Source: Vulcanimicrobiota bacterium
GTDB lineage: Bacteria; Vulcanimicrobiota; Vulcanimicrobiia; Vulcanimicrobiales; Vulcanimicrobiaceae
Length of the DNA: 64,000 nt
Direction: 5' to 3'
Assembly: GCA_963838895.1 (NCBI GenBank)
Contig: CAWIST010000003.1
Location: forward strand, 8,552 to 72,551
Of the stretch, positions 655 to 63,804 are shown piece after piece. A program made the position numbers and the translations under genes. The first letter of the stretch is position 1, and each line of letters begins with the position of its first letter. Below the pieces are notes generated by a model. It did no database searches. It was given only the letters and a program-made list of their open reading frames with translations, and was not told the origin of the DNA.

Positions 655-1311
655 TTATCGCGAGTAGTACTCAACGATCAGTTGTTCGTCGACAGGCGTG
701 TCGATATGCTCGCGAGCCGGAAGTTGCAGCATCTTTGCACTGTGCTCTTGCTCGTTCCACTCGAGCCAATCGGGCGGGCGGCGATTGCGCGCCACCTCGA
801 GATTCGATTCGAACACCGGCGACTTCAGGCTGCGATCGCCGATCGAGACCACGTCGCCGGGCTTTATGATGTGCGACGGTACGTTCACGATTTTTCCGTT
901 GATGCGAAAATGCCGGTGGGTGACCAGCTGACGGGCTTGCGCACGGCTCGCGGCCAGGTTCAGACGGTAGACGACGTTGTCGAGCCGCCGTTCGAGGAGT
1001 TGCAAGAACGTGCGCCCGGTCTGGCCCGGAACGCGTGCCGCCTCGCGGAAATAGTTTTTGAACTGTCCCTCGTGCACGCCATAGTAGCGGCGCATCTTCT
1101 GCTTCTCGCGAAGCTGGCGCCCGAACTCGGAAACCTTGGTGCGCGATTTGCCCGCGGTCTTCTGCCCCGGCGCCGTGCCGCGGCGTTCTACCGCGCATTT
1201 GCGAGAAAGGCAACGATCGCCTTTTAGGAAGAGCTTGATCTTCTCACCCGTCTTGTTCGCGGCGGTCTCGCGGCGGCAGAGCCGGCAAACCGGTCCCGTA
1301 TATCTCGACAT
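655..1311 (-). CDS. rpsD: 30S ribosomal protein S4
   Basis: ORF 655..1572 trimmed to the ATG at 1311: [15 protein letters not shown]...LIVEYYSR. The start overlaps the rpsK stop by 1 nt. Confidence 0.95.
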   Translation of the reverse strand: MSRYTGPVCRLCRRETAANKTGEKIKLFLKGDRCLSRKCAVERRGTAPGQKTAGKSRTKVSEFGRQLREKQKMRRYYGVHEGQFKNYFREAARVPGQTGRTFLQLLERRLDNVVYRLNLAASRAQARQLVTHRHFRINGKIVNVPSHIIKPGDVVSIGDRSLKSPVFESNLEVARNRRPPDWLEWNEQEHSAKMLQLPAREHIDTPVDEQLIVEYYSR

Positions 1312-1706
1312 CAGACGCGTCTGCGCTTGGGCGGACGGCAGCCGTTGTGCGGGATCGGCGTCACGTCTTTGATCAGCGTGATCTCCAGCCCGGCAGCCTG
1401 CAGCGAGCGGATCGCCGCCTCGCGTCCGGCGCCCGGGCCCTTCACAAGCACCTCGGTCGTCTTCAGCCCGTGCTCCATCGCTTTGCGCGCGGCGGCCTCT
1501 GCAGCCATCTGCGCGGCAAACGGCGTGGACTTCTTCGAACCCTTGAAGCCGAGATTCCCTGCCGACGCCCAAGAGAGCACATTGCCGTGCCCGTCGGCGA
1601 TCGTGACGATCGTATTGTTGAAAGAAGCGTGGATGTGCGCGACGCCCGATTGGACGTTCTTCACCTCACGCTTGCGGCGCGTCTTGGTTTGCTTCTTGGC
1701 AGCCAA
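1311..1706 (-). CDS. rpsK: 30S ribosomal protein S11
   Basis: ORF 1311..1805 trimmed to the TTG at 1706, giving (M)[35 protein letters not shown]... (131 aa, normal S11 length). GGAG lies ~13 nt upstream. Confidence 0.9.
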
Positions 1707-1776
1707 TAGAAAGGGTGACTCCGGGAGGGAAGGCAGTATGCCGCGTGCACCGGAGAGAGGCCGGCGCCAAGGGCCT

Positions 1777-1805
1777 ATGTTACCGTAGGCGCCGCCCCCG
1801 GTCAA
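1777..1805 (-). promoter_or_regulatory. Candidate sigma70-type promoter for rpsK-rpsD-rpoA (TTGACC-N17-TAACAT)
   Basis: Minus strand reads cTTGACCgggggcggcgcctacggTAACATagg, ~70 nt upstream of the rpsK start. Hexamer match by eye only. Confidence 0.3.
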
Positions 1806-1889
1806 GGTCGCGGTGGCGCTCCGCCGCGAGAGAGGGGACTCGCCGGCTGCCGGACCCCCTCATCGCTTCCTAGCCTAGGTGCTTTGCTC

Positions 1890-3173
1890 CTAGAACTTGA
1901 TGCCGAGGCCGGCGTACGGCCCGCTATGGGTGTACCCTGAGGGGTCGTTGGCATTGGCAGCGTTTCCAATGTCCCCGAGCCAGCCGAGATCCACGAAGAT
2001 CGGGCTGTTCCCGATGACCCAGGTCACGCCGACTTGGTACTTGAGCACGCGATATGCCATGATCCACGGCGCACCCGTCACGTCGACGTACGTGCCGCGC
2101 ACGTTCGGGTAGTAGTAGGCGCTCCCGTAGATCGAGAAGCTGTGATCGAGATCGGGTAGCTTCTCAAGCCCGACGCCCCAGCCGCTCATGTTCGGATAGC
2201 CGTAGTTGTTCGAGCGCCAGAGGTAGCCGACACCGATGTAGATTCGCGGATCGGCGATGCGAATGCCCAGGCGGGCGTCGACGTCACGATCCAGCGCCGT
2301 GAAAGCCGGCACGAACGAGAACCCGCCGCCGCCGATGTCCAAGACGTTGCACTCCGGATCGCTCACGCTCGCACAGTTATGCGGGTACTCGTACTGGCGG
2401 AAGTCGCCGGCGAGCATCCACGGGATGTGCCACGTGTCGAACTCCATGGCGCCGCGAACCGCGTACGAGGAGCGTCCGGTGTTGCCCGGGCTGAACTCGT
2501 TGTACACCTTCGGCGAGAAGATGTAGTCGCCGGCAACATAGACGTCGTTATAGCGAGCCGGCGGCGGGGGCGGCGGGGGTGGGGGCGGCGGAGCCGCACT
2601 CGGCGGCGGAGCCGGAGGCGGCGGCGGGGTCGGCGGGATGTACCGCACGACGACGACGTGCTGATCCGGAACCCACTGTACGTAGGCGCCCATGCCTTCT
2701 GAGATCACGCGAACCGGAACGAGCACCATCCCGTTGTACATGATCGGCGGAACGTCAAGGGGCCGTGACTCGCCGTTGATGACGACTTCAGGCCGGCCGA
2801 CGGTGACCTGCACCTGTGCGCCAGGTTTTGAAATCGTAACCGTTTGGTTCGACGGATCGTATGAAACCGACGCGCCCATCTGCTCGAACATCGAGCGCAA
2901 TGGAATGAGCACGGTGCCGTTACGGACTAACGCCGCGAGAACGCGGTTCTGCCGCAGCGTGTCGGGTTTACTGTAGACGTGGTGATCGTTATAGAGAATC
3001 GGAATCGCTCCCGATGGTGGCGAACCGAAATCGGGTGCGGGTGCCCCCGCCTGCGCAACGACAGCACTTCCAATGTTTCGCTGTGCGAATGCGGCAGACG
3101 GTAAGGCAAGCGCTGCGAGCCCGCAGCACGCCGCAACCAGCGTGGCGAGGGCTCCTGTGCCCAATCGTTTCAC
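1890..3173 (-). CDS. Secreted protein: copper-amine-oxidase-N-like (stalk) domain, poly-Pro linker and C-terminal beta-barrel ending in Phe (putative outer-membrane protein)
   Basis: Signal peptide MKRLGTGALATLVAACCGLAALALPSAAFAQ. Motif VLIPLRSMFEQMGASVSYDPSNQTVTISK is typical of Cu_amine_oxidN1. The linker is PPTPPPPPAPPPSAAPPPPPPPPPPP. The C-terminal ~220 aa have alternating hydrophobic residues, are rich in aromatic residues and Gly, and end ...YAGLGIKF. Confidence 0.75.
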   Translation of the reverse strand: MKRLGTGALATLVAACCGLAALALPSAAFAQRNIGSAVVAQAGAPAPDFGSPPSGAIPILYNDHHVYSKPDTLRQNRVLAALVRNGTVLIPLRSMFEQMGASVSYDPSNQTVTISKPGAQVQVTVGRPEVVINGESRPLDVPPIMYNGMVLVPVRVISEGMGAYVQWVPDQHVVVVRYIPPTPPPPPAPPPSAAPPPPPPPPPPPARYNDVYVAGDYIFSPKVYNEFSPGNTGRSSYAVRGAMEFDTWHIPWMLAGDFRQYEYPHNCASVSDPECNVLDIGGGGFSFVPAFTALDRDVDARLGIRIADPRIYIGVGYLWRSNNYGYPNMSGWGVGLEKLPDLDHSFSIYGSAYYYPNVRGTYVDVTGAPWIMAYRVLKYQVGVTWVIGNSPIFVDLGWLGDIGNAANANDPSGYTHSGPYAGLGIKF

Positions 3174-3238
3174 GAATGCCTCCTTAGATGATGACGGACG
3201 GGTCGCTTGGTTACTCTATGCGTTATCCGCCGTACGGC

Positions 3239-4426
3239 TTATTCCCTCAATGACGCAACCGGTAACCGCCTGAGCAGCCAGATGCCTGCCAGCATTTCGA
3301 GCGCCGCCAAGGCAAAGGCGGCAGCGGGTCCGGATCGGCTATAGGCGGCGAGACGTTCGAGCAGCATCGTCGCCAACAACGGCGCAATGATCTGCGGCAC
3401 GATTACGCCCAGGTTCCAGAGAGCCATCGCGCCGGCAGCCGCGTTGATCGGGATGATGCGACACGCAAGCGCCCAATCCGCGACCAGGAAAACGCCCCAA
3501 CCGAGTCCGGCCAATACGATCGCCGTTGTCGCCACGATCGGGGATCGACCGATGACGAAGAGCACCAGGGCCACGACGACGATCGCCGCACCCACGCTTG
3601 CGACGTTGCGGCGGTCGAAGCGATCGCTCGGCTTTGCCGCGATTGCCGCGCCCGCCGCCCCTGCGAGCGTGAAGATCAGCACGAAGATCCCGTCGATGAC
3701 CCGGGCTCGAGCGGTATCCTGGTTGATGAACGCAAGAACGTAAAAGAACAGATAGCCGAGAAGCGTGTAGAACCCGGCGAAGAGCGCGACGCGCGAGGCA
3801 AAGAGCACTGCAAACGCGCGCGAGAGGCGCATCCCTACGACCGGAACTTGCTGGAGCACCCACCCGCGCAGCGTCGCCGTCGTGACGGCGCACGTCGTAA
3901 GGAGCAGGGCGCCGAGCATCACGGCGAGCAGCAGCGGGTTTGCGAACGCGATTGCCAGCAACGCGCCCGCGGCATTGCCGGCGCTCTGAAAGCCCGCCAT
4001 CCACGCCGATGCCAAACCCGTCCGAGAGGCCTCGATCGCGTCGGGGATCGCCGCCTGATACGCTCCGATTGCCACATTGAGCCCCGCCTGCAAGGCCGCG
4101 TAGGCGAACAACAACGACGCCGCCGTCTGCGCTTCGTATAACCAGATCAACGCGGCCGCGCCGAGCAGCGCTCCCACGACGTAGAACTCCAAGCGCCGAC
4201 TGCCCGCGGCACGGCGTCGATCCGACCATGGCCCGACGATGAGCTGCACGCACGCCGCAATGATCGCGCCGCTCGTCGCGACTTGCCCGTAGAGCACGAT
4301 CGCATCCGAGCCAGCGATCTGCGCGCAACGCGCTTGCAGCGAGATGCCCAACAGCGCACCCCAGACCGCCTGGATACCGAACCAAAAGAGGGCGAGGCGC
4401 GCGATGCTAGCGGTGTTCGCAGGCAT
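3239..4426 (-). CDS. MFS-type transporter
   Basis: 395-aa polytopic membrane ORF with a WSDRRR-type loop after TM2 and ~12 hydrophobic segments. Confidence 0.75.
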   Translation of the reverse strand: MPANTASIARLALFWFGIQAVWGALLGISLQARCAQIAGSDAIVLYGQVATSGAIIAACVQLIVGPWSDRRRAAGSRRLEFYVVGALLGAAALIWLYEAQTAASLLFAYAALQAGLNVAIGAYQAAIPDAIEASRTGLASAWMAGFQSAGNAAGALLAIAFANPLLLAVMLGALLLTTCAVTTATLRGWVLQQVPVVGMRLSRAFAVLFASRVALFAGFYTLLGYLFFYVLAFINQDTARARVIDGIFVLIFTLAGAAGAAIAAKPSDRFDRRNVASVGAAIVVVALVLFVIGRSPIVATTAIVLAGLGWGVFLVADWALACRIIPINAAAGAMALWNLGVIVPQIIAPLLATMLLERLAAYSRSGPAAAFALAALEMLAGIWLLRRLPVASLRE

Positions 4427-5135
4427 AACGGTACTCGGCTTCGGTGTCCGCGTCGAAGGCCAGCTCCGGCGCGCACCCGCGCACCACGCGCGCCGCTATC
4501 CCGAGAACGCTCGACGCCCGGCGCTCGAGCACCGCGATCGACAGCGTGCCGAGCGCCAAGCGCGCGAGCAGATCGAATCCGGCGATCCTTGCCATTTGCC
4601 ACGGTTGCTTGCGCGCGCCGAAGAACCGTATCGCAAGCGACGCAACCTTCCCGGCTGCACCCGGCGGCACGACGAAGGCGCCGCCGTTGACGACGCGCTC
4701 GCCGGCAAGGCGAATGCCGAACGGCGGCGCGCCCGGAAAGCGCCGTGCGAACGCCTCCGCATCGCTCAGCGACATCGCGAGTTCGTCTCCCGCTCGCGTC
4801 ACGAAGTCGTCGAGCGACGGCGCGTCGACGTAGGGGAGATCGCTGGTGAGATACAGCAACCGCTCGTCATCTGGCCAGGCGCGCAACGCACGCCGCAGGT
4901 TCTCTCCCCCGTCATCAGCTTCGGGGACGACGCGATCGATTTCAGCGCCGCAAGCGGCGCGTACCATCTCACCCCCGACGACGGCGATCTCGCTCGCGCC
5001 CGCGCCGCGCGCTGCGAGGATCGCCCGCGAGAGCATCGTGACGCCACGAACCGGCGCAAGCGCCTTGATCGTGGTGCCGGCGGTACGCTCGTAGGCGCCG
5101 TCGACCCGACCACCCGCCGTGATGACGGCCCTCAC
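4407..5135 (-). CDS. MobA-like NTP transferase (nucleotidyltransferase) family protein
   Basis: N-terminus MRAVITAGGRVDG... is a GT-A/NTP_transf_3-like glycine loop. Start and stop overlap the neighbouring genes. Confidence 0.6.
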   Translation of the reverse strand: MRAVITAGGRVDGAYERTAGTTIKALAPVRGVTMLSRAILAARGAGASEIAVVGGEMVRAACGAEIDRVVPEADDGGENLRRALRAWPDDERLLYLTSDLPYVDAPSLDDFVTRAGDELAMSLSDAEAFARRFPGAPPFGIRLAGERVVNGGAFVVPPGAAGKVASLAIRFFGARKQPWQMARIAGFDLLARLALGTLSIAVLERRASSVLGIAARVVRGCAPELAFDADTEAEYRYACEHR

Positions 5136-5989
5136 GCCATCCCTGGGAGGGACGGCTGATCCGGCATGCCGCCCGGCGCGCGAAGCAGTACTTCGTCCGC
5201 AGCATCACCGTACCGCTCTTCGAGCAGCGCCACGAGCACTTCCGCATTGCTTGCAGCCCGGCCACGCGCATGATTGTTGAAGAACACCAACGTCTGCTGC
5301 GTCTGCGCCTCCAGATCGGCAATCCGATCGCTCCACGGCATCAGTTCTTGAGCGGAGTAATCGTAGTCATAGCGCGTGACGTTTGTTCCCGTCCACCAGG
5401 TCTTCGCGTTGCGACCGTGCATGCGAACGTAACCAACGGAGCTCGTCGCGTCCGACGACGGCCCAAGCAGCGTCTCATAGGACGGCATGTCCACATTGCA
5501 GTACCCTGCTCCGATCGCGCGCAACAATGCCAGCGTCCGATCCGATTGCCATTCGCGCCGACGGAACTCGACCACAACCGGTATGCCCTCGAACGCCTCG
5601 ACGACGCGCTCGACGTACTCCTCGTTCGTTTGTGTCGCCCCGAACCCGTTCGGAAACTGCGCGAGCACGCAGGCCAGCTTCCCAGCCTCACGTAGCGGCG
5701 TAAGCGCATCGACGAGGCGCGCCGCATCGTCGTGCACTCGCGCGCGCGTCTCCGGCGGACGCGTCACCGTCGCAGGCGCCTTTACGCTGAAGCGGAACGC
5801 AGGCGGCGTGCGCGCCCCCATCGAGGCGATGCTCCGCCGCTCCGGAACGCCATAGTAACTCGAGTCGATCTCGACGGCGGAAAATCGGGTCGCATAGAAC
5901 GGGAGCATCTCCACGGAACGCACCGCCGGCGGGTAGAACGCGCCGACCCAATCTCTATATGCGAACCCGCACGTCCCGACGTAGATCAT
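5132..5989 (-). CDS. DUF72 (YecE-like) family protein
   Basis: ORF 5132..6139 trimmed to the ATG at 5989: MIYVGTCGFAYRDWVGAFYPP..., a typical DUF72 N-terminus. The upstream 50 codons are encoded by the repeat element. Confidence 0.8.
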   Translation of the reverse strand: MIYVGTCGFAYRDWVGAFYPPAVRSVEMLPFYATRFSAVEIDSSYYGVPERRSIASMGARTPPAFRFSVKAPATVTRPPETRARVHDDAARLVDALTPLREAGKLACVLAQFPNGFGATQTNEEYVERVVEAFEGIPVVVEFRRREWQSDRTLALLRAIGAGYCNVDMPSYETLLGPSSDATSSVGYVRMHGRNAKTWWTGTNVTRYDYDYSAQELMPWSDRIADLEAQTQQTLVFFNNHARGRAASNAEVLVALLEERYGDAADEVLLRAPGGMPDQPSLPGMA

Positions 5990-6009
5990 ACGTTTTGAGG
6001 AAGCGAGGT

Positions 6010-6043
6010 GCGAAGGGTCCCCTGCTTCGAAGACGTTCGTCGC
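6010..6043. repeat. Partial inverted copy of the right end of the variant element at 6254..6391
   Basis: GAAGGGTCCCCTGCTTCGAAGACGTTCGTCGC is the near reverse complement of GCGACGAACGTCTTCGAGGAAGGGGACCTC at 6361..6390 (17 + 7 bp pairing). Confidence 0.5.
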
Positions 6044-6055
6044 TCCATCTCGCAA

Positions 6056-6213
6056 GCAAGAAGGGGTGCTCCGTCGTCGAACCGCTGCTCGCTCGCCGTC
6101 CGGGCTCGCTCGCGCTGCGGCGCTTTTTTGGAGGAACAAAGTTTTGAAGTTTCACGTCCCTGTGAAAACGTCCAAAAAAGTTGCAGCTTCTCCGACGGAG
6201 CACCCCTTCTCGC
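6056..6213 (-). mobile_element. Interspersed ~160-nt element, copy A (core read on the minus strand)
   Basis: Core is shared with 18776..18941 and 36805..36971. Arms are GCAAGAAGGGGTGCTCCGTC / GACGGAGCACCCCTTCTCGC (19/20 complementary). Confidence 0.6.
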
Positions 6214-6253
6214 CTCGCAATTCTCGCGCCCTCTCACGGGAGTCCGATCCTTG

Positions 6254-6391
6254 CGAGGTCCCCTTCGGAGAAGTGTGAGAGATTTGCGCAAAAGCCATGG
6301 ACGGCGAACTTCCTTTGAAGTTGCGCAAATCCGATCAAGTAGGAGCGCGCATGGACGCGCGCGACGAACGTCTTCGAGGAAGGGGACCTCG
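6254..6391 (+). mobile_element. Variant of the interspersed element (same GGAGAAG entry, different core)
   Basis: Perfect 13-bp arms CGAGGTCCCCTTC / GAAGGGGACCTCG. GGAGAAG follows directly after the left arm. Internal 11-bp inverted repeat GATTTGCGCAA / TTGCGCAAATC. Confidence 0.5.
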
Positions 6392-6415
6392 TAGGGCTCG
6401 AGCTCCTGTGAACCT

Positions 6416-6802
6416 TTATTTCTTGGGTAGAACTTTCTTCTTGCCGGCGACGGTACGCTTAGGTCCCTTGCGCGTCCGCGCATTCGTCTTCGTCCGCTGT
6501 CCGCGAACGGGGAGGCCGCGTCGATGACGCAGGCCGCGGTAGCATCCGATGTCCATGAGGCGCTTGATGTTGCCCTGAACCTCGCGGCGCAGGTCACCCT
6601 CGACGCGCAGCTCGAGCGCGTCGATCGCGTCGCGCAGGCTCTTTTCATCTTCCTCGCCCATATCTTTGACCCGGACATCCGGGCTCACGCCGGAATGCGC
6701 GAGCAAGCGGCGCGCCGTCGACGGGCCGATGCCGAAGATGTAGGTGAGCGCAACCTCGATGCGCTTCTCGCGTGGAAGATCGATACCGGCGATACGAGCC
6801 AT
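6416..6802 (-). CDS. rpsM: 30S ribosomal protein S13
   Basis: [34 protein letters not shown]..., full-length ORF. Confidence 0.95.
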
Positions 6803-18673: not shown

Positions 18674-18702
18674 ACTATATCAAGCCGGCCTCACCCCGTC
18701 AA
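18674..18702 (-). promoter_or_regulatory. Sigma70-type promoter upstream of rplC (TTGACG-N17-TATAGT)
   Basis: Minus strand reads cgcTTGACGgggtgaggccggcttgaTATAGTgcc, ~60 nt before the rplC ATG. The architecture is almost the same as the site upstream of rpsL. Confidence 0.5.
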
Positions 18703-18775
18703 GCGCGGGTGGGGAGCGCAGCGGATGGTCCAGTCCCTTTTGGGGCGCCTCTTCGAGCCGCCGCCTTCGGGTACG

Positions 18776-18941
18776 CGTGGAGACGGAGTGTCCCAATCGG
18801 AGAAGTTGCAACTTTTTTGGACGTTTTCACACGGACGTGAAACTTCAAAACTTCGTTCTTCCAAAGGTGCCGCGTATATGCGCGAGCGAGCCCGGACGGC
18901 GAGCGAGCCGCGGTTCGACGATGGGGCGCCCCGTCTTCACG
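18776..18941 (+). mobile_element. Interspersed ~160-nt element, copy B
   Basis: Arms are CGTGGAGACGGAGTGTCCCAATC / GATGGGGCGCCCCGTCTTCACG (3 wobble positions, 1 mismatch, 1 bulge) around the shared core. Confidence 0.6.
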
Positions 18942-18956
18942 TGGACGCCGGAGGCG

Positions 18957-19277
18957 CTAGTAGTTTAGCCTGAGGTCGTAGCGGCAGGTGTTGAAGGCGC
19001 CTTCGGTCGCAACGTGCCCGTTGCGCCAGATGACGCGGATGTCTTCCAGGCAGCCCTCGCCGATCGTGAAGTTCGCCGATTGGCCTGAGAAGAGGAAGTT
19101 GTTGCCGAGCAGATCCGGCCCCCACATGCGGCGGTTGATCCCCGAGATATTGATGGTCTGGACGGCGTGCGAACCGGCGTTCACTACGCGCAGATTATGC
19201 GCCGCAAACGACGGAGCAGCGCACGCTAGGGTTGCAGCAGCGGCAAATGCCAGCGCGAGAGAGAGCCTTCTTAGCAT
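18957..19277 (-). CDS. Small secreted protein of unknown function (paralog 1)
   Basis: Signal peptide MLRRLSLALAFAAAATLACAAPSFA. Shares WGPDLLG...IGEGC.ED.R.I..NG....NTC.Y.L.L.Y with the next gene. AAGGTG RBS. Confidence 0.75.
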   Translation of the reverse strand: MLRRLSLALAFAAAATLACAAPSFAAHNLRVVNAGSHAVQTINISGINRRMWGPDLLGNNFLFSGQSANFTIGEGCLEDIRVIWRNGHVATEGAFNTCRYDLRLNY

Positions 19278-19293
19278 GCTTTCACCTTTCGTC

Positions 19294-19614
19294 TTAGTAC
19301 GTTAGATTCAAGTTATAGGCGCACGTGTTGATGTTGCCGCGCACGATCGTATAGCCGTTGGTGTAGATGATTCGGACATCTTCGGCGCATCCTTCGCCGA
19401 TATTGAACGTGTCGCGCACGCCGGGACGCAAGACATATCTGCCGAGCAGGTCCGGCCCCCAGAGACTCCGATTCACACCCGAGATCTGAATGTGATACGC
19501 GGTGTGGCTCCCGTTGTTGAAGATAACGAACCGGTGCGAGGCATACGCCGGGGCGACCGAAGCGAGGGTCGCGGCGATGCTCAGCACGAGAAAAAGAGCG
19601 GCTTTCTTGAACAT
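19294..19614 (-). CDS. Small secreted protein of unknown function (paralog 2)
   Basis: Signal peptide MFKKAALFLVLSIAATLASVAPAYA. AAGGTGG RBS. Same motif set as 18957..19277. Confidence 0.75.
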   Translation of the reverse strand: MFKKAALFLVLSIAATLASVAPAYASHRFVIFNNGSHTAYHIQISGVNRSLWGPDLLGRYVLRPGVRDTFNIGEGCAEDVRIIYTNGYTIVRGNINTCAYNLNLTY

Positions 19615-31629: not shown

Positions 31630-32298
31630 GTGCTGATCCGCGTGATGTTCCTCGCATTTGCGCTCGCGGTGCTCGGTGAGACGCTGCTTCATGCCGCCGC
31701 AGCGCTCGCACTTGCGGCCTTCCATCGGCAGGGCGTGAGCGCAGCGCAAGCCGCGTTCGTGAACGCAGCGCAGCTTGCACAAAGCACGATCGCCGGCGCC
31801 ATGGCATCGGGCGCGACACCACCCACAGTGATGCCGTCGCCCGCCCCGACCTGTGCAGCGAGCAGCGACGATGCGTGCCTGATGACGTCGAGCGTGACCC
31901 TGACGGAAGTAACGCCGGCGCCTTCGCCGTGCCCATCCCCCGGTTGCGGCACGTATCTACAAGGAAACGACGCGATCGCAGAGGGGCGGCTTGCGGTCGC
32001 GATCGATGCCGTCGTCACGAATGCAGCCGGCGAAACGATCGCCGCGCGAGGCGGCACGGTCGTCTTTCGAACCTTCCGGATTACGCCGTACGCCGTTCCG
32101 GTCGGCTCGCTCGATGCGACGCTCGACGACCTTGCGGGAAACGCAGGCGATGAGGGTGGAATCGTGCCCGCCGGTCCCGGGGCGGGAACGTTGATCGACG
32201 TCGTTTATCAGAATGCTTCGAGCGGCGCTACGATGCCGGCCAACGTGTGGAGCGGCCTCGCGCCATCAGCACCGCTCGTTCGATCCTGGACGCCCTAA
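31630..32298 (+). CDS. Hypothetical membrane-anchored/secreted protein (possibly a PilX-like N-terminal helix)
   Basis: 222 aa with an N-terminal hydrophobic helix VMFLAFALAVLGETLLHAAAALALAAF, then a Pro/Ala/Thr-rich region. Confidence 0.5.
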   Translation: MLIRVMFLAFALAVLGETLLHAAAALALAAFHRQGVSAAQAAFVNAAQLAQSTIAGAMASGATPPTVMPSPAPTCAASSDDACLMTSSVTLTEVTPAPSPCPSPGCGTYLQGNDAIAEGRLAVAIDAVVTNAAGETIAARGGTVVFRTFRITPYAVPVGSLDATLDDLAGNAGDEGGIVPAGPGAGTLIDVVYQNASSGATMPANVWSGLAPSAPLVRSWTP

Positions 32299-32300
32299 TG

Positions 32301-32678
32301 CTAACCGGCCGAAGATTTGAGGGCCGAGTCGGTGATGTTGGCGATGACCGGCACGCGAACTTCCTTGCCTTGGAAGCCGGAGATGAACGTCCACAGCCAC
32401 ACCGCGAGCCACGCGATGTTGAGCAGCCAGGCCAGGAACGTATGGATCGCAGAGAGGCCCGCCATGTACATCGGTATTGCGAGAAATCCCAGGGCGACGT
32501 AAAGGATCACCACCGCCACGCCGAGCACGATCGACTGCGCCGCGGCCCAGCGCACGAACGAGTTCGTGCCGCCGCCGACGAGCATGACGACCCCGCCTAG
32601 CCAACTGAAGAGATAGGCCAGACCCGCGGCAACATGGGGTTCGAGGCCGAAGGGCGTGTCATGGTTCGGCGGGCGCAT
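32301..32678 (-). CDS. Small integral membrane protein (DUF4870-like), tandem paralog 1
   Basis: ATG at 32678: MRPPNHDTPFGLEPHVAAGLAYLFSWLGGVVMLVGGGTNSFVRWAAAQS...ISGFQGKEVRVPVIA... Confidence 0.7.
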   Translation of the reverse strand: MRPPNHDTPFGLEPHVAAGLAYLFSWLGGVVMLVGGGTNSFVRWAAAQSIVLGVAVVILYVALGFLAIPMYMAGLSAIHTFLAWLLNIAWLAVWLWTFISGFQGKEVRVPVIANITDSALKSSAG

Positions 32679-32765
32679 AATGTTCGAACGGCGCCGCGAT
32701 GCCGGCCAATTCGCAAACCGGCCCAGCACGCTCGGCGCCGCTCGTGAGGTCCTTGGGCGGCCTGG

Positions 32766-33137
32766 TTAGCCGATCATCGACTTGAACAGGCTCTCCGTCA
32801 ATCCGGCAATGATGGGCACGCGTACTTCCTTGCCCTGGAAACCGCTGATGGTCGTCCATATCCAGAGAATGAACCATATCAATCCCAAGAGCGGAAAGAT
32901 CATGAACAGGAAGTAGAAGTGCAGCAATCCCATCATCAGCTGCAATGCGAAAATGAGCACGATATACAGCCCCCACATCGTGGTTGACTGAGCTGCCGCC
33001 CACTTTACGAACTTGTTCGTGCCGCCGCCGACGAGCATGACGATGCCGCCGAGGATGCCGAGCAGGTAGGCGAGACCCGCCGCGACGTTGGGCTCCAGCC
33101 CGAAGGGCGTGTCTTTGCTGGGAGGTTGACCAACCAT
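32766..33137 (-). CDS. Small integral membrane protein (DUF4870-like), tandem paralog 2
   Basis: ATG at 33137: MVGQPPSKDTPFGLEPNVAAGLAYLLGILGGIVMLVGGGTNKFVKWAAAQS...ISGFQGKEVRVPIIA... Confidence 0.7.
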   Translation of the reverse strand: MVGQPPSKDTPFGLEPNVAAGLAYLLGILGGIVMLVGGGTNKFVKWAAAQSTTMWGLYIVLIFALQLMMGLLHFYFLFMIFPLLGLIWFILWIWTTISGFQGKEVRVPIIAGLTESLFKSMIG

Positions 33138-33265
33138 ATGCTTGCAGTATCCTCTCTTTCCAAAAGGCTCCGAGTGCGCAATCGCTGGCACCCCCTTTCG
33201 TCGCAAGCCCGGCAAGCGCCTGGAACGGCAAGGAATCAGGGGGCGGGCACGAAAGGGCGCGCCCG

Positions 33266-33451
33266 ATGGCCAGGCGCGCGTGGAACCTGCTCTTGCTGGT
33301 GCCGTTCGTCGCATACCTCGATCCGGTCTGGTATAACCACGCCGAGCCGCGCCTCTTCGGCTTCCCCTTCTTCTATTGGTACCAGCTCCTCTGGGTGGCG
33401 CTGACCTCGCTGATCATCGCGTCGGTCGCGCTGTTGCAGCGCCGCCGATGA
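33266..33451 (+). CDS. DUF3311-type small membrane protein (companion of an SSS transporter)
   Basis: 61 aa: ...LLLLVPFVAYLDPVWYNHAEPRLFGFPFFYWYQLLWV... Its stop overlaps the next ATG (ATGA). Confidence 0.75.
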   Translation: MARRAWNLLLLVPFVAYLDPVWYNHAEPRLFGFPFFYWYQLLWVALTSLIIASVALLQRRR

Positions 33452-36069: not shown

Positions 36070-36414
36070 GTGTCGTTGTTGACTCGGCCTCGCAGTAAGG
36101 CGCATCTCGCGCTCTTTGCCGCTTTGATGGCGACGATGATCCTCTCGGTCGCGAGCGGCTACTTCCATGGCCCACCGCTCCTGGAGCGTGCGCCCATCGC
36201 GATCGTCTGCCTGCTCTCCTTCCCTGCCGCGTACCTCTGGGGAAAGCGGCTAGCCGCGCGCGTCATAATAAACGCCGCGCTTATGGAACTCGTGCTCGCG
36301 GCGTGTTTTGGTGCCTTCCTCTTCGTACGCTCGCCCGCAGTCAACGATGCGATATTCCTCGCAGCGGCAGCACTCCTGGTTGCCGCGCTACTGCTCAGGC
36401 GGCTGAAACGTTAG
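36070..36414 (+). CDS. Small multi-pass membrane protein of unknown function
   Basis: 114 aa with ~4 hydrophobic segments, 19 nt after the preceding gene. GTG start. Confidence 0.55.
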   Translation: MSLLTRPRSKAHLALFAALMATMILSVASGYFHGPPLLERAPIAIVCLLSFPAAYLWGKRLAARVIINAALMELVLAACFGAFLFVRSPAVNDAIFLAAAALLVAALLLRRLKR

Positions 36415-36827
36415 CGAATGCGAAATGGGGCGTTTTCTTCCGTGGCCGCACCTGCGGCATTTCGCGCAATGACGCGTAGACGATAGCCGCGCAGGAAGAT
36501 CGGCGGCGTATCAAAGACGTCGAGGCTGAACGCGAAGCGCCCGGCCGCGATGCGCGGCACGTTGATCGCGAAGAGATTCGTGCGCACTTCCATCGCCTTC
36601 GTGTTCGTCGATACGACGAAGCTCGCGCGCCAGACCTGACCGCGGCGAACGTCCAGAGATGAAAAATGCATGGCGACAATGCGCGGTGCTGCCGCCTTAG
36701 GGAGAATCGGCGGCGTGGCCCAGGCCTTGGGCACGTTGCCGACGACGGCATTGGAGGGGATCTGTGTCGGCGGCGACGCGCACGCGGCTAGCAGCAATAG
36801 GGCAGTCATCAACAGGGGGCGCCCCAT
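36411..36827 (-). CDS. Putative lipoprotein of unknown function
   Basis: ORF 36411..36983 trimmed to the ATG at 36827: MGRPLLMTALLLLAACASPP... (lipobox LLAAC). The upstream 52 codons are encoded by the repeat element. Confidence 0.6.
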   Translation of the reverse strand: MGRPLLMTALLLLAACASPPTQIPSNAVVGNVPKAWATPPILPKAAAPRIVAMHFSSLDVRRGQVWRASFVVSTNTKAMEVRTNLFAINVPRIAAGRFAFSLDVFDTPPIFLRGYRLRVIARNAAGAATEENAPFRIR

Positions 36828-36971
36828 TGGAGAAGCTGCAACTTTTTTGGACATTTTCACAGGGATGTGAAACTTCAAAACTTTGTTCTTCCAATAAAAG
36901 TGCCGCAGCGCGAGCGAGCCCGGACGGCGAGCGAGCAGCGGTTCGACAATGGGGTGCCCCTTGTTGATGAC
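36805..36971 (+). mobile_element. Interspersed ~160-nt element, copy C
   Basis: Arms are GTCATCAACAGGGGGCGCCCCATT / AATGGGGTGCCCCTTGTTGATGAC (24 bp, two G:U positions) around the shared core. Confidence 0.6.
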
Positions 36972-37040
36972 CCTAGTCTGCATGCCTTAACATCGTCAGC
37001 GCCAAGCGGAGTTTCCTGCCGCACCGCGTAAAGTGCCCGC

Positions 37041-38066
37041 ATGAGGCCCGCGCAATCGCTCGCCTTCGACTATGCGGTTGGGATTTGCTGCGTTTGGATC
37101 GTTAGCGGCTTCTTCTTCGACGCATGGGCGCACGGGCACGTGCCGATCGAATCCTTTTTCACGCCTTACCATGCGGTCTTCTACTCCGGCGGGCTCGCGC
37201 TGCTCCTGATCGTCGCGGGGTACGCAATCGGAAATCGCGCTCGCGGCGCGTCGTGGCGCGATTCGGTTCCGCAGCCGTACCATTTGGCGTTGCTCGGTTT
37301 TCCGATCTTCCTCGTCGCCGGCTTCGGCGACATGCTCTGGCATCGGCTGCTCGGCCTCGAGGTCGGCGTCGATGCCCTGCTCAGCCCGACCCATCAGGCA
37401 CTCGGGTTGGGCATGTTCTTCCTCGCGAGCGGGCCCATTCGCTCGGTGCTCGCCAACCGTTCGACGAGCACGACGCTCGCGCGCCAGGTTCCACTGCTGC
37501 TTGGCCTGATCGCCTGGTATGGACTCGTCCACTTCGGCACCGCCTACGCCTTCGATCCCGGAGCCGCACGGGCAGATGCGCCGCCGCCGATCGCGTTCTC
37601 TTCTCAGTACCTCACCGCGCTTGCGATCGGCTATTACAAGATCTCCGTCGGCGTCCTCATCGTGATCTTCCAGGCGACGCTGACCGCCGGCTTCGCGCTC
37701 TGGAGCGTTTCGCGCATGGCCCTGCGCCCCGGTTTCTTCACGATCCTGTACCCCTGCGCGAACGCGATGGCGGCCGCACCGTTCACGAACCAAACGCCGT
37801 TGCTCGCGATCACGCTCGTCGCCTCATTCTGCGTGGGCATCGCCGCGGACCTGCTGGTTGCGCGCACCGATCCGCAGCCGGAGTCGCCTGCAGCGTATCG
37901 CTGGTTCGCGGTGCTCGTCCCGCTCGTCTACACCGGCGTATTTCTGCTCGCAACCGCGATTCGCGCCGGGATTTGGTGGGATTGGAACATCTCGCTCGGC
38001 GCGTGCTGCTGGGCGGGAGTCGCGGGCTTTGGTTTGAGCTTCATCGGAACCGCGCGCCGCACGTAG
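37041..38066 (+). CDS. Polytopic membrane protein of unknown function with conserved His motifs
   Basis: 341 aa with ~9 hydrophobic segments and the motifs DAWAHGH, GDMLWH and SPTH. Confidence 0.65.
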   Translation: MRPAQSLAFDYAVGICCVWIVSGFFFDAWAHGHVPIESFFTPYHAVFYSGGLALLLIVAGYAIGNRARGASWRDSVPQPYHLALLGFPIFLVAGFGDMLWHRLLGLEVGVDALLSPTHQALGLGMFFLASGPIRSVLANRSTSTTLARQVPLLLGLIAWYGLVHFGTAYAFDPGAARADAPPPIAFSSQYLTALAIGYYKISVGVLIVIFQATLTAGFALWSVSRMALRPGFFTILYPCANAMAAAPFTNQTPLLAITLVASFCVGIAADLLVARTDPQPESPAAYRWFAVLVPLVYTGVFLLATAIRAGIWWDWNISLGACCWAGVAGFGLSFIGTARRT

Positions 38067-38117
38067 CCATCTTGCCGGCGCGTCCAGTTCCGCTGACTTC
38101 AGGGTACTTGATCCGGC

Positions 38118-40181
38118 ATGGATGCGCGCGAGCGCGGTTTCACGCTGCTCGAGATGACGATCGCGGTAGGAATCTTCGCCCTCCTACTCGCGACGGGCGC
38201 GTGGGCGCTCGCATCGCATCCTAACGCGCTGGCCGCTGCGACCGACGATCTCGACGCTTCGATCGCCGCGGCCCGCGCACTCGCGGCGTCCAGCGGCAAC
38301 GGCGCGACGCTCGTCTTTGCGCCGCGAAGCAACTCAACGGGGAGTCCGCTTCCCGGTTTCCTGCTGCGCGTCTATCGCGGTCGCCCGAATGCCGCAAACG
38401 CGGTGAGCCCGACTTCGGCCATGCCGCTCGTTGCTGATGCGAGCGTGCGCGAGCGTACGCTCGGAGCACCGCCATTCGCAATCTTCGTCGACAGCGCGGG
38501 CAACGTGAGCGCAGAGGCGCAGTATCCCTCTTTCGATGCGAACGGAGAGGCGAGTTTCACCGTCATCGCGCAGGAGCCGGAGTGTCCCGCCGGTGGCTTC
38601 ACGCTGACGCTGACCAATCCGCAGGGCAACGCCACGACGACCCGTACGCTCGCGTGTCGCGTCTCGCTCAGCGGCACACCCGCGCCGAATCCGTCGCCGA
38701 CGCCGAACGTGCCGATCGTCACGCCGAGCACGCTGCTCTTTCATTGGCCCGAAGATGAGCAGCAGCAGTTTGTCGCAACCGAATGGGGTTACACGCATTG
38801 GTTTGCCTCCGCGAGCGGATTTGCGTGCGGAAACGGCATCGCCGCATTTCCTAACGTGTTGCCCTCGCCCTACAGCGCCGCGTACTCGCCCTCGGAGGCG
38901 CTACTGCCGCCTCCGCCGCCGCCGAACACGCCGTTCTCCTATCCTAACTCGAACGGCGGCAGCATGAACGACGCGCCCGCCAGCTTTCCGCTCCAGCCGC
39001 AAAGCGCGGGACTTTGCACTGCCGCCGTCCAGGACGACGGCGGACAAAATGCTTCGACGGCCGTCATCGTGATGGGCTGGCTGACGGCGACGTATGCTTC
39101 CACGAGCGCGACGCATGCGTCGGGCTCGCTCGCAATCCCCGCGAACGCACTGCCAAAAGCCGGCAGCAGCGTGACGATCGCGCTCGCGAAGAGCTTCGAT
39201 GCAACCGCGCTCGCCCCGCGGGTGGCGTTTACGGGAAGCAACGCCTCCGCGTGCGCCGCCGATCTCGCGCTGACGGCCTCGAACGGGACCACGCCGAGTA
39301 CGCCTTCGAGCACGCCGGCAACCGCATCGGTTACGCTGACGGTGACGGCGCTTCCGCCGTCGGCGCTTTCGTGCGCCGGCGTGATCTACAATCACTACGC
39401 GGATGCGAACGCGCCGTCGGACGCGGTCTCCGAGGCGGGCGAGGGAGTTGCCTTCACCACGTCGCTCTCGCCCGCGGAGGGACCGCTTACCGTGTGGCCC
39501 GTCGGCGTCGTCTATCCCGTCTCCGGCCAGACTCTCGACGCCGGTTGCAGCGCCGTCGCCTATAAGAACGCCTCACTCACTCAGATCGACGCGAGCGATT
39601 CGACTTACGCCTCACTCGGCGCCGGCACCGACGCCAACGGCTGCTACAGCGGCGTGGTAGTCGTAAGCGAGACGGGATACGGGGGAGCGTTTGCCCTCAC
39701 TCCGGCATGCGGAAACTCTTTAGTATTAGGAATATGGTCTCCGACCGATGTTGGACCAACAGCCGACATCGAAATGAGCGGCGGCGTAACGCCCGTGGCG
39801 TCCTGTGCCGTTTCCGTCTCTTCGAGCGACCAAACCATCGTAAACGGCGGGGCGCGTAACGTCGAAGTTGCCGTTGATTCATGCTCGAGCAGCGGCGGAA
39901 CAGTTACCACTGGGACGGGCTGTGAGTTCACGATGCCGGTCAGCTGGGGAGATCCACCCGATTGTGCGCCGGGCGGCGCCCAGGGTACGCTCGTCACCGT
40001 TGCCGTCATAGAGAGCCCCGATCCGATGCTCGGCACGATCGCGCAAATTAGTAATAATGGTGTAACAGGAACGTACGTTTGGACTCGGACCGCTCCCGGA
40101 ACTCAGACGATCAGTTGGACTGAAATCGAGACGACCTGCCGTCACGACACCACGTCGCACGGAACTATAACGTTCGACTGA
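38118..40181 (+). CDS. Large (687 aa) protein with a prepilin-type N-terminal cleavage/methylation signal and a GspH/FimT-like start (modular pilin/pseudopilin)
   Basis: MDARERGFTLLEMTIAVGIFALLLATGAWALA matches the class III signal (G/FTLxE plus a hydrophobic helix). It is followed by ~600 aa of Ser/Thr/Ala/Pro-rich sequence with paired Cys. Confidence 0.8.
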   Translation: MDARERGFTLLEMTIAVGIFALLLATGAWALASHPNALAAATDDLDASIAAARALAASSGNGATLVFAPRSNSTGSPLPGFLLRVYRGRPNAANAVSPTSAMPLVADASVRERTLGAPPFAIFVDSAGNVSAEAQYPSFDANGEASFTVIAQEPECPAGGFTLTLTNPQGNATTTRTLACRVSLSGTPAPNPSPTPNVPIVTPSTLLFHWPEDEQQQFVATEWGYTHWFASASGFACGNGIAAFPNVLPSPYSAAYSPSEALLPPPPPPNTPFSYPNSNGGSMNDAPASFPLQPQSAGLCTAAVQDDGGQNASTAVIVMGWLTATYASTSATHASGSLAIPANALPKAGSSVTIALAKSFDATALAPRVAFTGSNASACAADLALTASNGTTPSTPSSTPATASVTLTVTALPPSALSCAGVIYNHYADANAPSDAVSEAGEGVAFTTSLSPAEGPLTVWPVGVVYPVSGQTLDAGCSAVAYKNASLTQIDASDSTYASLGAGTDANGCYSGVVVVSETGYGGAFALTPACGNSLVLGIWSPTDVGPTADIEMSGGVTPVASCAVSVSSSDQTIVNGGARNVEVAVDSCSSSGGTVTTGTGCEFTMPVSWGDPPDCAPGGAQGTLVTVAVIESPDPMLGTIAQISNNGVTGTYVWTRTAPGTQTISWTEIETTCRHDTTSHGTITFD

Positions 40182-59200: not shown

Positions 59201-59673
59201 GCATCGTTTGCGAGAGCGCGCTCCTGCTGAAGGGAACGTACGAACTCAAGCCCGGCGTCGCCGAGCCGCTCGCGCAGGCGCAGATCTTGGTCGTCTCGCC
59301 ATACAACGCGCAACGACGGCTTCTACGGGAGCGCCTCGCGAAAGCGGGTCTTGGCGAGATTCGGGTCGGCACCGTCGACAAGTTTCAGGGACAAGAGGCG
59401 CCGGTCGTCTTTTACTCGATGGCAACATCGAGCGGGGACGAACTGCCTCGCGACGTCGGCTTCCTCTTCGAGAAAAATCGCCTCAACGTCGCGATCTCCC
59501 GCGCGCAGTGTTTGAGCGTGCTGGTCTGCTCGCCGCGGCTGCTCGACGTCCGCTGCTCAACCCCGGAGCAGATGGCCTTAGTGAACCTCTTATGCCGCTA
59601 CGCAGAAGCGGCAACGCAACAACGTCCGGGAATCACTGGTTTAGTCCAGGCGACGCCGGCATGGAAGAGGTAA
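56203..59673 (+). CDS. RecB-family (TM0106-type, Cas4-like 4-Cys) nuclease fused to an RNase-H-like module and an SF1 (Upf1/DNA2-like, AAA_11/AAA_12) helicase
   Basis: N-terminus ...SASDLNGFLECE...YEVLDTKLA...HCKICRWSPIC... Middle GDVFFDMEGDPLY...HYASYETSALKRL. C-terminus FVQGPPGSGKST, LVIDEAGQ, LLGDPLQL, VSPYNAQ, VDKFQGQE, NVAISRAQ. Confidence 0.85.
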   Translation: MQRIGERLIFSASDLNGFLECEVLTGLEEEAARGLRVRPEPDETTALIARKGEEHEQRYLASLRASGVDVHEIPRVEHHDAASLEAAERATLAAMERGASVIYQATFFDGQFMGHADFLRRVERPCERWAWSYEVLDTKLALSTKTYFLVQLCNYSAHVERLTGTMPARMIVVSGSNVEASYALEDYLAYYRHLKAAFIARMSARGNGAYPHEVPHCKICRWSPICDARRDADDYLGLVAWMRRDAIRRLTSEGTTTIAALASATDAARPAGMAPESFERLRSQAALQHAQRTTGKHSYELLPFQEQRGFALLPQPNPGDVFFDMEGDPLYSAERGLEYLFGVYLPLEQRYLAYWAKNPSEERQAFETFIDFLERRRAAQPQMHVYHYASYETSALKRLSGYYASREESLDALLRAQSFVDLFAIVRQGLRISQPSYSIKKLEPFYGFARETKTRRGDDSILMFESWLVDGDENVLVDIENYNRDDCLSTLRLREWLLKLRGELAARDGEFAWRAEPAPPPPPQTQDVDERGAARERLLAGLAVPESIGALRAADESFRARWLLGHLLDYHRRDEKPAWWAYFQRCENRDQLVEFDREALGGLRHRDDIEPYKLKASHSTFVHVYEYPEQAHDLKGDPYILDAANPRSAGEIVRIDEDALQLHIKLSGKVDSGRLDALAPMPALATGSLREALLRTARSYLDATLEREQPALVDILLRRPPRLRGRVSGASVQPEVPDARAIAALARSLEGSYLFVQGPPGSGKSTTGAEVILDLIGSDNRVAILANQHKAIHNLLHKIEFEAQRRGQAFHGIQRYSKSNAGSSFESKLERSYVTCTDSNDALDEPHDLAAGTAWVFSRQELVGRYDYLVIDEAGQIALANAIACAPCARNLILLGDPLQLAQVSQGSHPLGVELSVLEHLLGDDATVLPDRGVFLDRSFRMHPAICTFISESVYETRLRAGENTTAHRIQTPGLSGSGLRYLPVAHEGNARESAEEAERIVCESALLLKGTYELKPGVAEPLAQAQILVVSPYNAQRRLLRERLAKAGLGEIRVGTVDKFQGQEAPVVFYSMATSSGDELPRDVGFLFEKNRLNVAISRAQCLSVLVCSPRLLDVRCSTPEQMALVNLLCRYAEAATQQRPGITGLVQATPAWKR

Positions 59674-59871
59674 GGCGCGAGGAGCTCTGAGTTTCGTTCG
59701 GGTCAAGGAGCCGAGCGGGCGAAGTGTACTAGGGTACATGAGCTCCGAGGCGACGCCGGCATGGAAGAGGTAAGGCACGAGGAGCTCTGAGTTTCGTTCA
59801 GGCCAAGGAGCCGAGCGGGCGAAGTGTACTAGGGTACATGAGCTCCGAGGCGACGCCGGCCTGGACGAAAC

Positions 59872-59884
<13 letters not shown>
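59648..59884. repeat. 100-bp tandem direct repeat (2 full units plus a partial one) that also forms a long inverted repeat with the rpoC 3' end
   Basis: Units at 59648-59747 and 59748-59847 differ at 3 positions by eye. A third unit starts at 59848. CGAGGAGCTCTGAGTTTCGTTCAGGCC (59776-59802) is the near reverse complement of 59858-59884. Confidence 0.85.

Positions 59885-63804
<3,920 letters not shown>

Follow-up and report, generated by a model that had tools for sequence, protein, structure and literature searches.

A candidate family of hairpin-forming mobile repeats in Vulcanimicrobiaceae with arms extended by inverted copies of flanking DNA

We found that a 64,000-nt stretch of DNA from a Vulcanimicrobiota bacterium (GCA_963838895.1, contig CAWIST010000003.1, positions 8,552 to 72,551, forward strand; here called the window) carries a repeat family with a defined architecture, insertion polymorphism among relatives, arms derived from the flanking DNA as inverted copies, and a strand asymmetry. 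The reading that we favor, and consider likely, is that of a lineage-specific, nonautonomous, Correia/ERIC-like mobile repeat that forms a hairpin and whose arms are made or kept perfect by fold-back (template-switch) DNA synthesis. The unit consists of three layers, namely, a structured core of ~118 nt, a terminal inverted repeat (TIR) of 13 nt, and an outer part of 7 to 11 nt that the element would not itself carry, and the family in Vulcanimicrobiaceae comprises at least two subfamilies, A and B.

The source organism belongs to the family Vulcanimicrobiaceae of the phylum Vulcanimicrobiota (formerly Eremiobacterota/WPS-2), and the window, as placed by ribosomal protein L3 and a 341-amino-acid (aa) membrane protein, falls near Ca. 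Tyrphobacter and Ca. Tumulicola. Loci from relatives, labeled L011 to L063, were compared with the window by orthology, with the relative represented by L011 to L015 showing 85.5% DNA identity to it. Further copies of the element were gathered via these orthologous loci, and a covariance model was built on the four A copies; the whole evidence base consists of six full copies and three informative pairs of insertion and empty site. The 64 kb contain four copies (three of subfamily A and one of subfamily B) plus fragments, as follows.

6056 to 6213, minus strand: copy c1, subfamily A, covariance model score of 191.6 bits; 5′ outer arm GCGAGAA (6207 to 6213), 5′ TIR GGGGTGCTCCGTC (6194 to 6206), core (6076 to 6193), 3′ TIR (6063 to 6075), 3′ outer arm TTCTTGC (6056 to 6062)
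18776 to 18941, plus strand: copy c2, subfamily A, covariance model score of 158.4 bits; 5′ outer arm CGTGGAGAC (18776 to 18784), a new inverted copy; 5′ TIR (18785 to 18798), core (18799 to 18919), 3′ TIR (18920 to 18932); 3′ outer arm GTCTTCACG (18933 to 18941), ancestral flank
36805 to 36971, plus strand: copy c3, subfamily A, covariance model score of 184.1 bits; 5′ outer arm (36805 to 36815), ancestral; 5′ TIR (36816 to 36828), core (36829 to 36947), 3′ TIR (36948 to 36960); 3′ outer arm (36961 to 36971), a new inverted copy
6234 to 6411, plus strand: copy of subfamily B; model match at 6246 to 6398 (60.6 bits, E value of 1e-10)
6016 to 6043, minus strand: fragment of a B element, core 3′ end and 3′ TIR only, 93% complementary to 6361 to 6388
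18735 to 18765, minus strand: fragment resembling the 3′ end of the element, recognized by eye; GGCGGCGGCTCGAAGAGGCGCCCCAAAAGGG, that is, the core end plus the TIR-like GGCGCCCC

The positions and strands of the three A copies are those given in an initial annotation of this DNA, and they are confirmed by two invariant core motifs that each occur exactly three times in the window, compared to none in 100 shuffled sequences. The core common to these copies is 118 to 121 nt long, with a pairwise identity of about 90 to 95%. Each of the three copies folds as a rod with a closing stem of 20 to 27 bp and a folding energy of −78 to −89 kcal/mol (z-scores of −3.8 to −8.0); the arm pairing of c1 can be extended to 6049 to 6220, giving 27 bp with one bulge. 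The units of the element measure 148 to 178 nt, and none contains an open reading frame (ORF) with both a start and a stop. We also noted that rpoC (59872 to 63623, minus strand) is broken up among at least three ORFs, which overlap, differ in frame, and all encode RNA_pol_Rpb1 domains. Such splitting of an essential gene points to probable indel errors in the assembly, and single-base bulges in the arms of the element may likewise be sequencing errors. A Logan contig from the same sample begins inside c2, as expected of a repeat in a short-read assembly.

The covariance model built from the four A copies also identified a diverged B copy in the window and another in L019, both scoring about 60 bits. 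The window B copy is a fourth, diverged copy that the initial annotation had missed. It adjoins c1, lies antisense to rpsM with its first base 4 nt past the rpsM stop codon, and has the same architecture as the A copies, with arms of about 35 bp (6234 to 6273 and 6372 to 6411) and a folding energy of −100.7 kcal/mol (z-score of −7.8). The two fragments lie 12 nt beyond c1 (6016 to 6043) and 10 nt from c2 (18735 to 18765). Among the relatives, L011 has one A copy in the spacer between a 106-aa gene and rplC, about 70 nt away from the place of c2, in the opposite orientation and with other outer arms; L019 has one B copy (2307 to 2466) between tuf and rpsJ, where L022 has a decayed, A-like copy (2560 to 2714). 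This tuf-rpsJ spacer is only 8 to 9 nt long in the window and L011. Copies c2, window B, and L019 B are all directly 3′ of stop codons, and four of five copies are intergenic, with c3 inside a coding sequence. As judged from these positions, spacers of the ribosomal operons (tuf-rpsJ, upstream of rplC, and downstream of rpsM) appear to be repeated landing sites.

The initial annotation had proposed that the arms conserve pairing rather than sequence, as would befit an RNA. We found instead that the inner part of the arm is a conserved 13-nt TIR, GGGGYGCYCC-RTY, common to all eight arms of the four A copies, and that a shorter motif, CCCC(A/T)TC, is common to the A TIR and subfamily B; the end sequence of the element is GGGGYGCCCCATY. 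Between c1 and c3, the TIR differs at 4 of 13 positions, and all four differences are matched on the opposite arm. The arms are nonetheless copy specific yet self-complementary, as first described, in their outer 7 to 11 nt, which are unrelated between copies and complementary within each copy. In all four A copies these outer arms abut the TIRs and have at most one mismatch, a transition.

Orthologous empty sites show the origin of the outer arms: in all three insertions for which such sites are available, one outer arm was already there as flank, and the other arose as its inverted copy. One of these insertions, c3, lies in a gene, with the following features.

36411 to 36827, minus strand: lipoprotein gene, 138 aa, with its first four codons now within the c3 5′ TIR
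36972 to 36983, minus strand: ATGCAGACTAGG, putative former start of the lipoprotein gene, now displaced; L017 has ATGTGCAGAAGG at the corresponding place

L017 and L018 have no element at the c3 site, and their spacer between the lipoprotein gene and the gene for the 341-aa membrane protein is 82 nt. An automatic global alignment of this site was uninformative, and a protein-anchored alignment was used. The lipoproteins of the window and the relative are both 138 aa long and align without gaps from residue 1 (MGRPLLMT versus MCRRLLFA), showing that the c3 5′ outer arm, which is the reverse complement of CTGTTGATGAC and corresponds to codons 5 to 8 (LLMT), is ancestral coding sequence; the c3 3′ outer arm is a new inverted copy of these codons. 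The DNA inserted here (36816 to 36971) is 156 nt long, in frame, and stop free. Read on the minus strand, the c3 5′ TIR forms codons 1 to 4 (ATG GGG CGC CCC), so that, as far as the aligned sequences tell, the TIR probably supplies a new start codon to the lipoprotein gene, while ATGCAGACTAGG, which lies in frame beyond c3, is probably what is left of the original start. Near this site, a PMT_2 glycosyltransferase gene of ~1.5 kb that relatives have between the 341-aa membrane gene and an N_methyl (prepilin-type) gene (L017, 11023 to 12555; L060, 11350 to 12846) is cleanly missing from the window at 38066 to 38118.

The other two informative insertions lie upstream of rplC. At c2, CGTGAAGAC, which adjoins the 106-aa gene at its stop codon, has the orthologous sequences CGTGGTGAC (L011) and CGTGCGAC (L019), and this flank orthology extends exactly to the TIR boundary; the complementary arm, GTCTCCACG, has no counterpart in L011 or L019. 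For the L011 copy, the window itself is an empty site, and GCTCCC is found at the empty site in both the window and L019, with GGGAGC found in neither. The spacer upstream of rplC is empty in both L019 and L063, and the relatives at L057 and L059 are likewise free of copies but lack the 106-aa gene. The ancestral flank lies 5′ of the element in two of the three insertions and 3′ in one, which excludes a strictly polar, target-primed integration.

Thus, the element carries an inverted flank duplication of 9 to 11 nt in place of a direct one. When the junctions of the three insertions with empty sites were read directly, we found no direct target duplication at any of them and no TA duplication. 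Because one outer arm is ancestral and the other is its inverted copy, the "compensatory changes" of the outer arms are an artefact of copying, and their covariation reflects templated copying of the flank, not compensatory evolution. The initial annotation had named conserved TIRs together with direct target duplications as the pattern that would speak against it; the TIRs are indeed there (13 nt), while the target-derived part is inverted rather than direct.

The conserved TIR, the size of the unit, its multiple copies, and its insertion polymorphism are also what an ordinary TIR-bearing MITE moved by an insertion sequence (IS) transposase would have, with the complementarity of the outer arms arising by chance or by compensatory drift after insertion. 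The length of the duplicated flank fits this as well, since IS4/Tn5-like elements have target duplications of a similar 9 to 11 nt. We nevertheless consider this account quite improbable: a direct target duplication is missing from all three insertions, chance is excluded by arms of 7 to 11 nt in four of four A copies (by our estimate, roughly 1e-4 each), and drift is excluded by cores that are 90 to 95% identical in copies whose outer arms are unrelated. A different account holds that the element inserts into the loops of preexisting palindromes, such as terminators or REP-like hairpins, so that the arms are the halves of a host hairpin. Both c2 and the L011 copy do lie within a terminator-like hairpin of the empty L019 and L063 spacers, and the position of c2, window B, and L019 B right after stop codons points the same way. 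However, only one of the outer-arm sequences is present at each of the three empty sites, with the other being new DNA; the arms of c2 and of the L011 copy differ from the stems of the ancestral hairpin, which in L019 read AGCGCGGGA/TCCCGCGCT; and the target of c3 is a coding sequence without a matching palindrome. Host-hairpin halves are therefore a very improbable source of the arms.

In our favored reading, the ends of the core and the TIRs would pair within one DNA strand, and the 3′ end of that strand would prime fold-back synthesis, an intramolecular template switch that takes the opposite arm and the adjoining ~10 nt of flank as its template. Perfect hairpins are known to arise, and to be repaired, by template switching (PMC8794818, PMC5453318). 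The copying could occur at integration or in later rounds of replication, and it could convert a conventional direct target duplication of 9 to 11 bp to an inverted one; an enzyme supplied in trans would mobilize the element. From the pattern of arms we infer such synthesis, which would yield near-perfect arms, TIR variants that seem compensated within a copy, copy-specific outer arms, and no direct duplication, and which would account for the lack of fixed polarity with respect to the flank. The presence of an arm extension in all four A copies suggests that extension is either fast or built in. A more specific proposal is that integration itself makes an inverted target duplication of ~10 nt by hairpin-primed synthesis, from a single-stranded intermediate of fixed polarity. 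We regard this as possible but doubtful. If it is true, hairpin-primed integration would be a means by which a selfish hairpin regenerates perfect arms of its own accord and mimics RNA covariation. We know of no bacterial mobile element for which an inverted target duplication has been described as a signature of transposition.

Beyond the flank copying, we found conservation of structure. When the six copies (four A and two B) were aligned structurally, standard pairs filled 95.8% of pair cells, compared to 74% in shuffles and 36 to 49% in slid controls, and 35 of 53 pairs have changes on both sides, a level reached by none of 500 shuffles, although all of these figures lean towards structure since the alignment was fitted to the model. 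The structure is conserved, as initially proposed, and this holds across the subfamilies. The internal helix P2 has both-side changes in 6 of its 10 pairs with 98% pairing, and there are more in P1 and P3; the P2 and P5 stems have plainly different sequences in A and B but keep their pairing. An example of a both-side change is CTTTTTTGGA/TCCAAAAAAG in the window compared with CTTTCTTGGA/TCCAAGAAAG in L011. The unpaired columns are almost invariant while the stems vary, the reverse of the initial description of variable loops between retained stems; loops and junctions are more conserved than stems.

The structure is also asymmetric with respect to strand. The initial annotation had remarked that arm mismatches are of the G·U type on one strand, and this was strengthened by our analysis: read in the GGAGAAG orientation, the arms of all six elements have 15 G·U mismatches, compared to 2 A·C (P = 0.002), and the three copies not used in that annotation have 8 and 1, respectively. 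The GGAGAAG strand also folds better in each of five elements tested, by 4 to 14 kcal/mol. Together, the G·U-only bias and the covariation of internal helices suggest a single strand of fixed polarity as the form that is active or under selection. The outer-arm mismatches, which are G·U only, lie on the same strand, and have arisen in place, go beyond what fold-back copying alone, or any model that we formulated, explains.

These same properties (internal helices that covary between A and B, nearly invariant unpaired columns, mismatches and better folding that favor one strand, and z-scores down to −8) would all fit structured noncoding RNA genes or cis-acting RNA modules, such as RNase III or stability elements, in which the stems are selected on the sense transcript and mobility is secondary. 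The distribution of the copies argues otherwise, since they are present or absent among close relatives at sites that are not conserved, one of them (c3) is within coding sequence, and their outer stem is copied flank rather than conserved RNA sequence. The sense strand is codirectional with host transcription in c1 and the L011 copy but not in c2, window B, or L019 B; no promoter-like or terminator-like site was found in or beside the copies; and there is no Rfam match, even at an E value of ≤10. We consider an RNA function of this kind unlikely. Transcription of an RNA with both arms would need to begin in host DNA, yet only about half of the copies have their sense strand codirectional with the host genes. 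We therefore consider a single-stranded DNA (ssDNA) transposition intermediate more likely than RNA to be the constrained form.

Several other candidates were considered and set aside. Retron-like a1/a2 repeats were rejected, as there is no reverse transcriptase nearby, as were IS200/IS605 ωRNA and IS110 bridge-RNA guides, given variable segments on either side that are complementary to one another. The core was also considered as a sigma-54 or sigma-70 promoter and dismissed because the spacing is unsuitable and scans were negative. Choice of target by pairing of a carried guide was discarded on the ground that c1, c2, and c3 have outer arms with no relation to one another.

The insertions upstream of rplC and downstream of rpsM lie in a region of ribosomal protein genes. 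On the minus strand, the order of genes and elements is fusA, tuf, rpsJ, a 143-aa ORF (a 141-aa gene in relatives), an aldo-keto reductase gene, an acyl coenzyme A (acyl-CoA) dehydrogenase gene, genes for two 106-aa secreted proteins, c2, the rplC promoter, rplC through map, rpmJ, rpsM, the B copy, c1, and genes for DUF72, MobA-like, MFS transporter, and Cu-amine-oxidase-N1 proteins, followed by rpsK. One further feature is relevant to the position of c2.

18674 to 18702, minus strand: predicted rplC promoter, TTGACG-17-TATAGT with an upstream TG, strong sigma-70 type

This promoter is kept across the family (L011, L019, L022, L056, L057, L059, and L063), and both c2 and the L011 copy lie directly upstream of it. 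The block between the S10 and L3 genes (the 141-aa, aldo-keto reductase, and acyl-CoA dehydrogenase genes) is present in all relatives examined (L011, L019, L022, L057, L059, and L063), and the S10 operon therefore looks to have been permanently split in this lineage by a block of metabolic genes. Since the block occurs in every relative while the site of the element can be empty, the block is ancestral and the element came later. The initial annotation had placed two copies at the edges of foreign blocks within ribosomal operons; c1 and c2 do border nonribosomal blocks, but the block next to c2 is ancestral and is not delimited by the element. The spacers upstream of rplC and downstream of rpsM are nests of copies and fragments whose history is only partly reconstructed, and extra TIR-like fragments in both the window and L011 point to a complicated history of the rplC-upstream locus.

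Two further features of this region were observed. The tandem, paralogous 106-aa secreted proteins (18957 to 19614, minus strand) belong to no Pfam family; there is one such gene in L011, L019, and L063 and none in L022, L057, and L059, and the pair appears to be a recent tandem duplication within the S10-to-L3 block. The gap between rpsM and rpsK (1311 to 6802) is about 4.5 kb and holds the genes for DUF72, a MobA-like nucleotidyltransferase, an MFS transporter, and a Cu-amine-oxidase-N1-domain protein.

The suggestion that the repeat is an ERIC- or Correia-like palindromic unit without a match to a known family held up in database searches. Rfam gave no matches over the whole window at the gathering score and only noise for c1 and c3 at an E value of ≤10, and blastn of the element against public plasmid and phage collections detected no similarity. 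The exact 21-mer GAGCCCGGACGGCGAGCGAGC had four and six chance matches, all in unrelated sequence, in collections of genome contigs and metagenome contigs, respectively; this 21-mer is too strict as a probe, as the L011 copy has one base different. A concatenated six-frame translation of the core returned only the window's own ORF from a protein database. A first scan of viral contigs yielded only chance matches at the ends of three contigs of 37% GC, through a short motif alone, and there was no copy of the element among the 30 matches of a second scan. Neither the window nor the relatives' loci examined showed a transposase, RAYT, or reverse transcriptase, and mobilization in trans by an enzyme, like the ssDNA intermediate, is what our favored reading would entail.

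During these searches, we also observed other repeats. At 59648 to 59909, a 100-nt unit lies in tandem, 97% identical, at the 3′ end of a helicase/RNase_H_2 gene; beyond it, a 52-nt inverted repeat extends into the 3′ end of rpoC, so that the two convergent genes have a large hairpin between them. This structure has no relation to the element and scores only 21.7 bits with the model, on both strands. Direct repeats of 70 to 140 nt (32217 to 33125; 72 to 76% identity and about 460 nt spacing) overlap two adjacent minus-strand ORFs without Pfam domains (32301 to 32729 and 32766 to 33314), which are probably tandem paralogues. The three viral contigs, L023 to L025 (IMG/VR 3300045988; 37% GC), have GGAGCGAGCCAGGACGGCGAGCGAG about 50 to 90 nt from an end, and in L024 it is present at both ends in inverted orientation. 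It may be a phage terminal-repeat motif; nothing beyond this short sequence resembles the element, and the similarity is taken as chance.

The element is a worked example of how apparent compensatory changes in a long stem can come from copying of flank, not from selection for RNA pairing, which calls for caution when RNAs are sought by covariation in repeat-rich genomes. Should inverted duplication of the flank prove to be the rule throughout the genome, it would represent an undescribed route of integration or maturation for small palindromic repeats; to our knowledge, the movement of ERIC-, RPE-, and REP-like elements is still largely unexplained. The element also reshapes genes, in that it has given the lipoprotein gene a probable new start codon and has come to lie between a terminator and a promoter upstream of rplC. 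Vulcanimicrobiota/Eremiobacterota is an uncultured yet abundant soil phylum, for which we know of no repeat family described before this one.

By analogy, the element appears closest in behavior to Correia, ERIC, and Rickettsia palindromic elements (RPE) and closest in its strand-specific hairpin logic to REPINs. Correia elements (NEMIS) of Neisseria are likewise noncoding repeats, 100 to 160 bp long, with terminal inverted repeats that give a long hairpin when transcribed, and they are intergenic, in either orientation, often beside promoters or terminators. They can also invert in place (PMC10969869). However, Correia elements have a conserved 26-bp TIR, a direct TA duplication, and an IHF site, whereas the element described here has a 13-nt TIR, no direct duplication, and a stem made longer by inverted duplication of the flank; the two share no sequence similarity and come from different phyla. 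ERIC (IRU) sequences of Enterobacteria are similar in being imperfect palindromes (~127 nt) with a conserved central core, found in both orientations in intergenic transcribed regions, but their copies are conserved over the full length, without copy-specific arms. We know of no inverted flank duplication described for ERIC.

RPE can sit in frame within coding sequences, without stops (PMC10969869), as does c3, a 156-nt, in-frame, stop-free insertion at codon 5 of the lipoprotein gene. Unlike the present element, which is intergenic in four of five copies, RPE are mostly intragenic and encode segments of peptides. REPs and REPINs, with their RAYT enzymes (HUH Y1), share with the element hairpin repeats, complementary arms, and clustering or nesting, and their active form is one DNA strand of defined polarity, as it may be here. 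REPs are units of 20 to 40 nt with GTAG or CGTC tags (PMC3733652). The unit described here is far longer, with a conserved core of 118 nt, and c1 alone has CGTC at the inner end of its TIR. In a REPIN, the arms are conserved and the loop varies, in contrast to the conserved core and variable outer arms of the element.

Structural rather than sequence conservation and folding of one strand are also features of integron attC sites and the single-strand origins of rolling-circle plasmids, both of which are units defined by the fold of one DNA strand. In attC sites, the outer R and L boxes are conserved and the center varies, the reverse of what we found here, and the element has no integrase, Rep, or cassette context. 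The mechanism that we propose is quasi-palindrome template-switch mutation, as developed by Ripley, by Lovett, by Löytynoja and Goldman, and by Mönttinen and Löytynoja. Intrastrand template switching produces perfect reverse-complement repeats, longer stems, and apparent compensatory changes in one step (PMC8794818, PMC5453318). Template switching has been described as a sporadic class of mutation, whereas here its proposed products are a regular feature of every copy of a mobile family.
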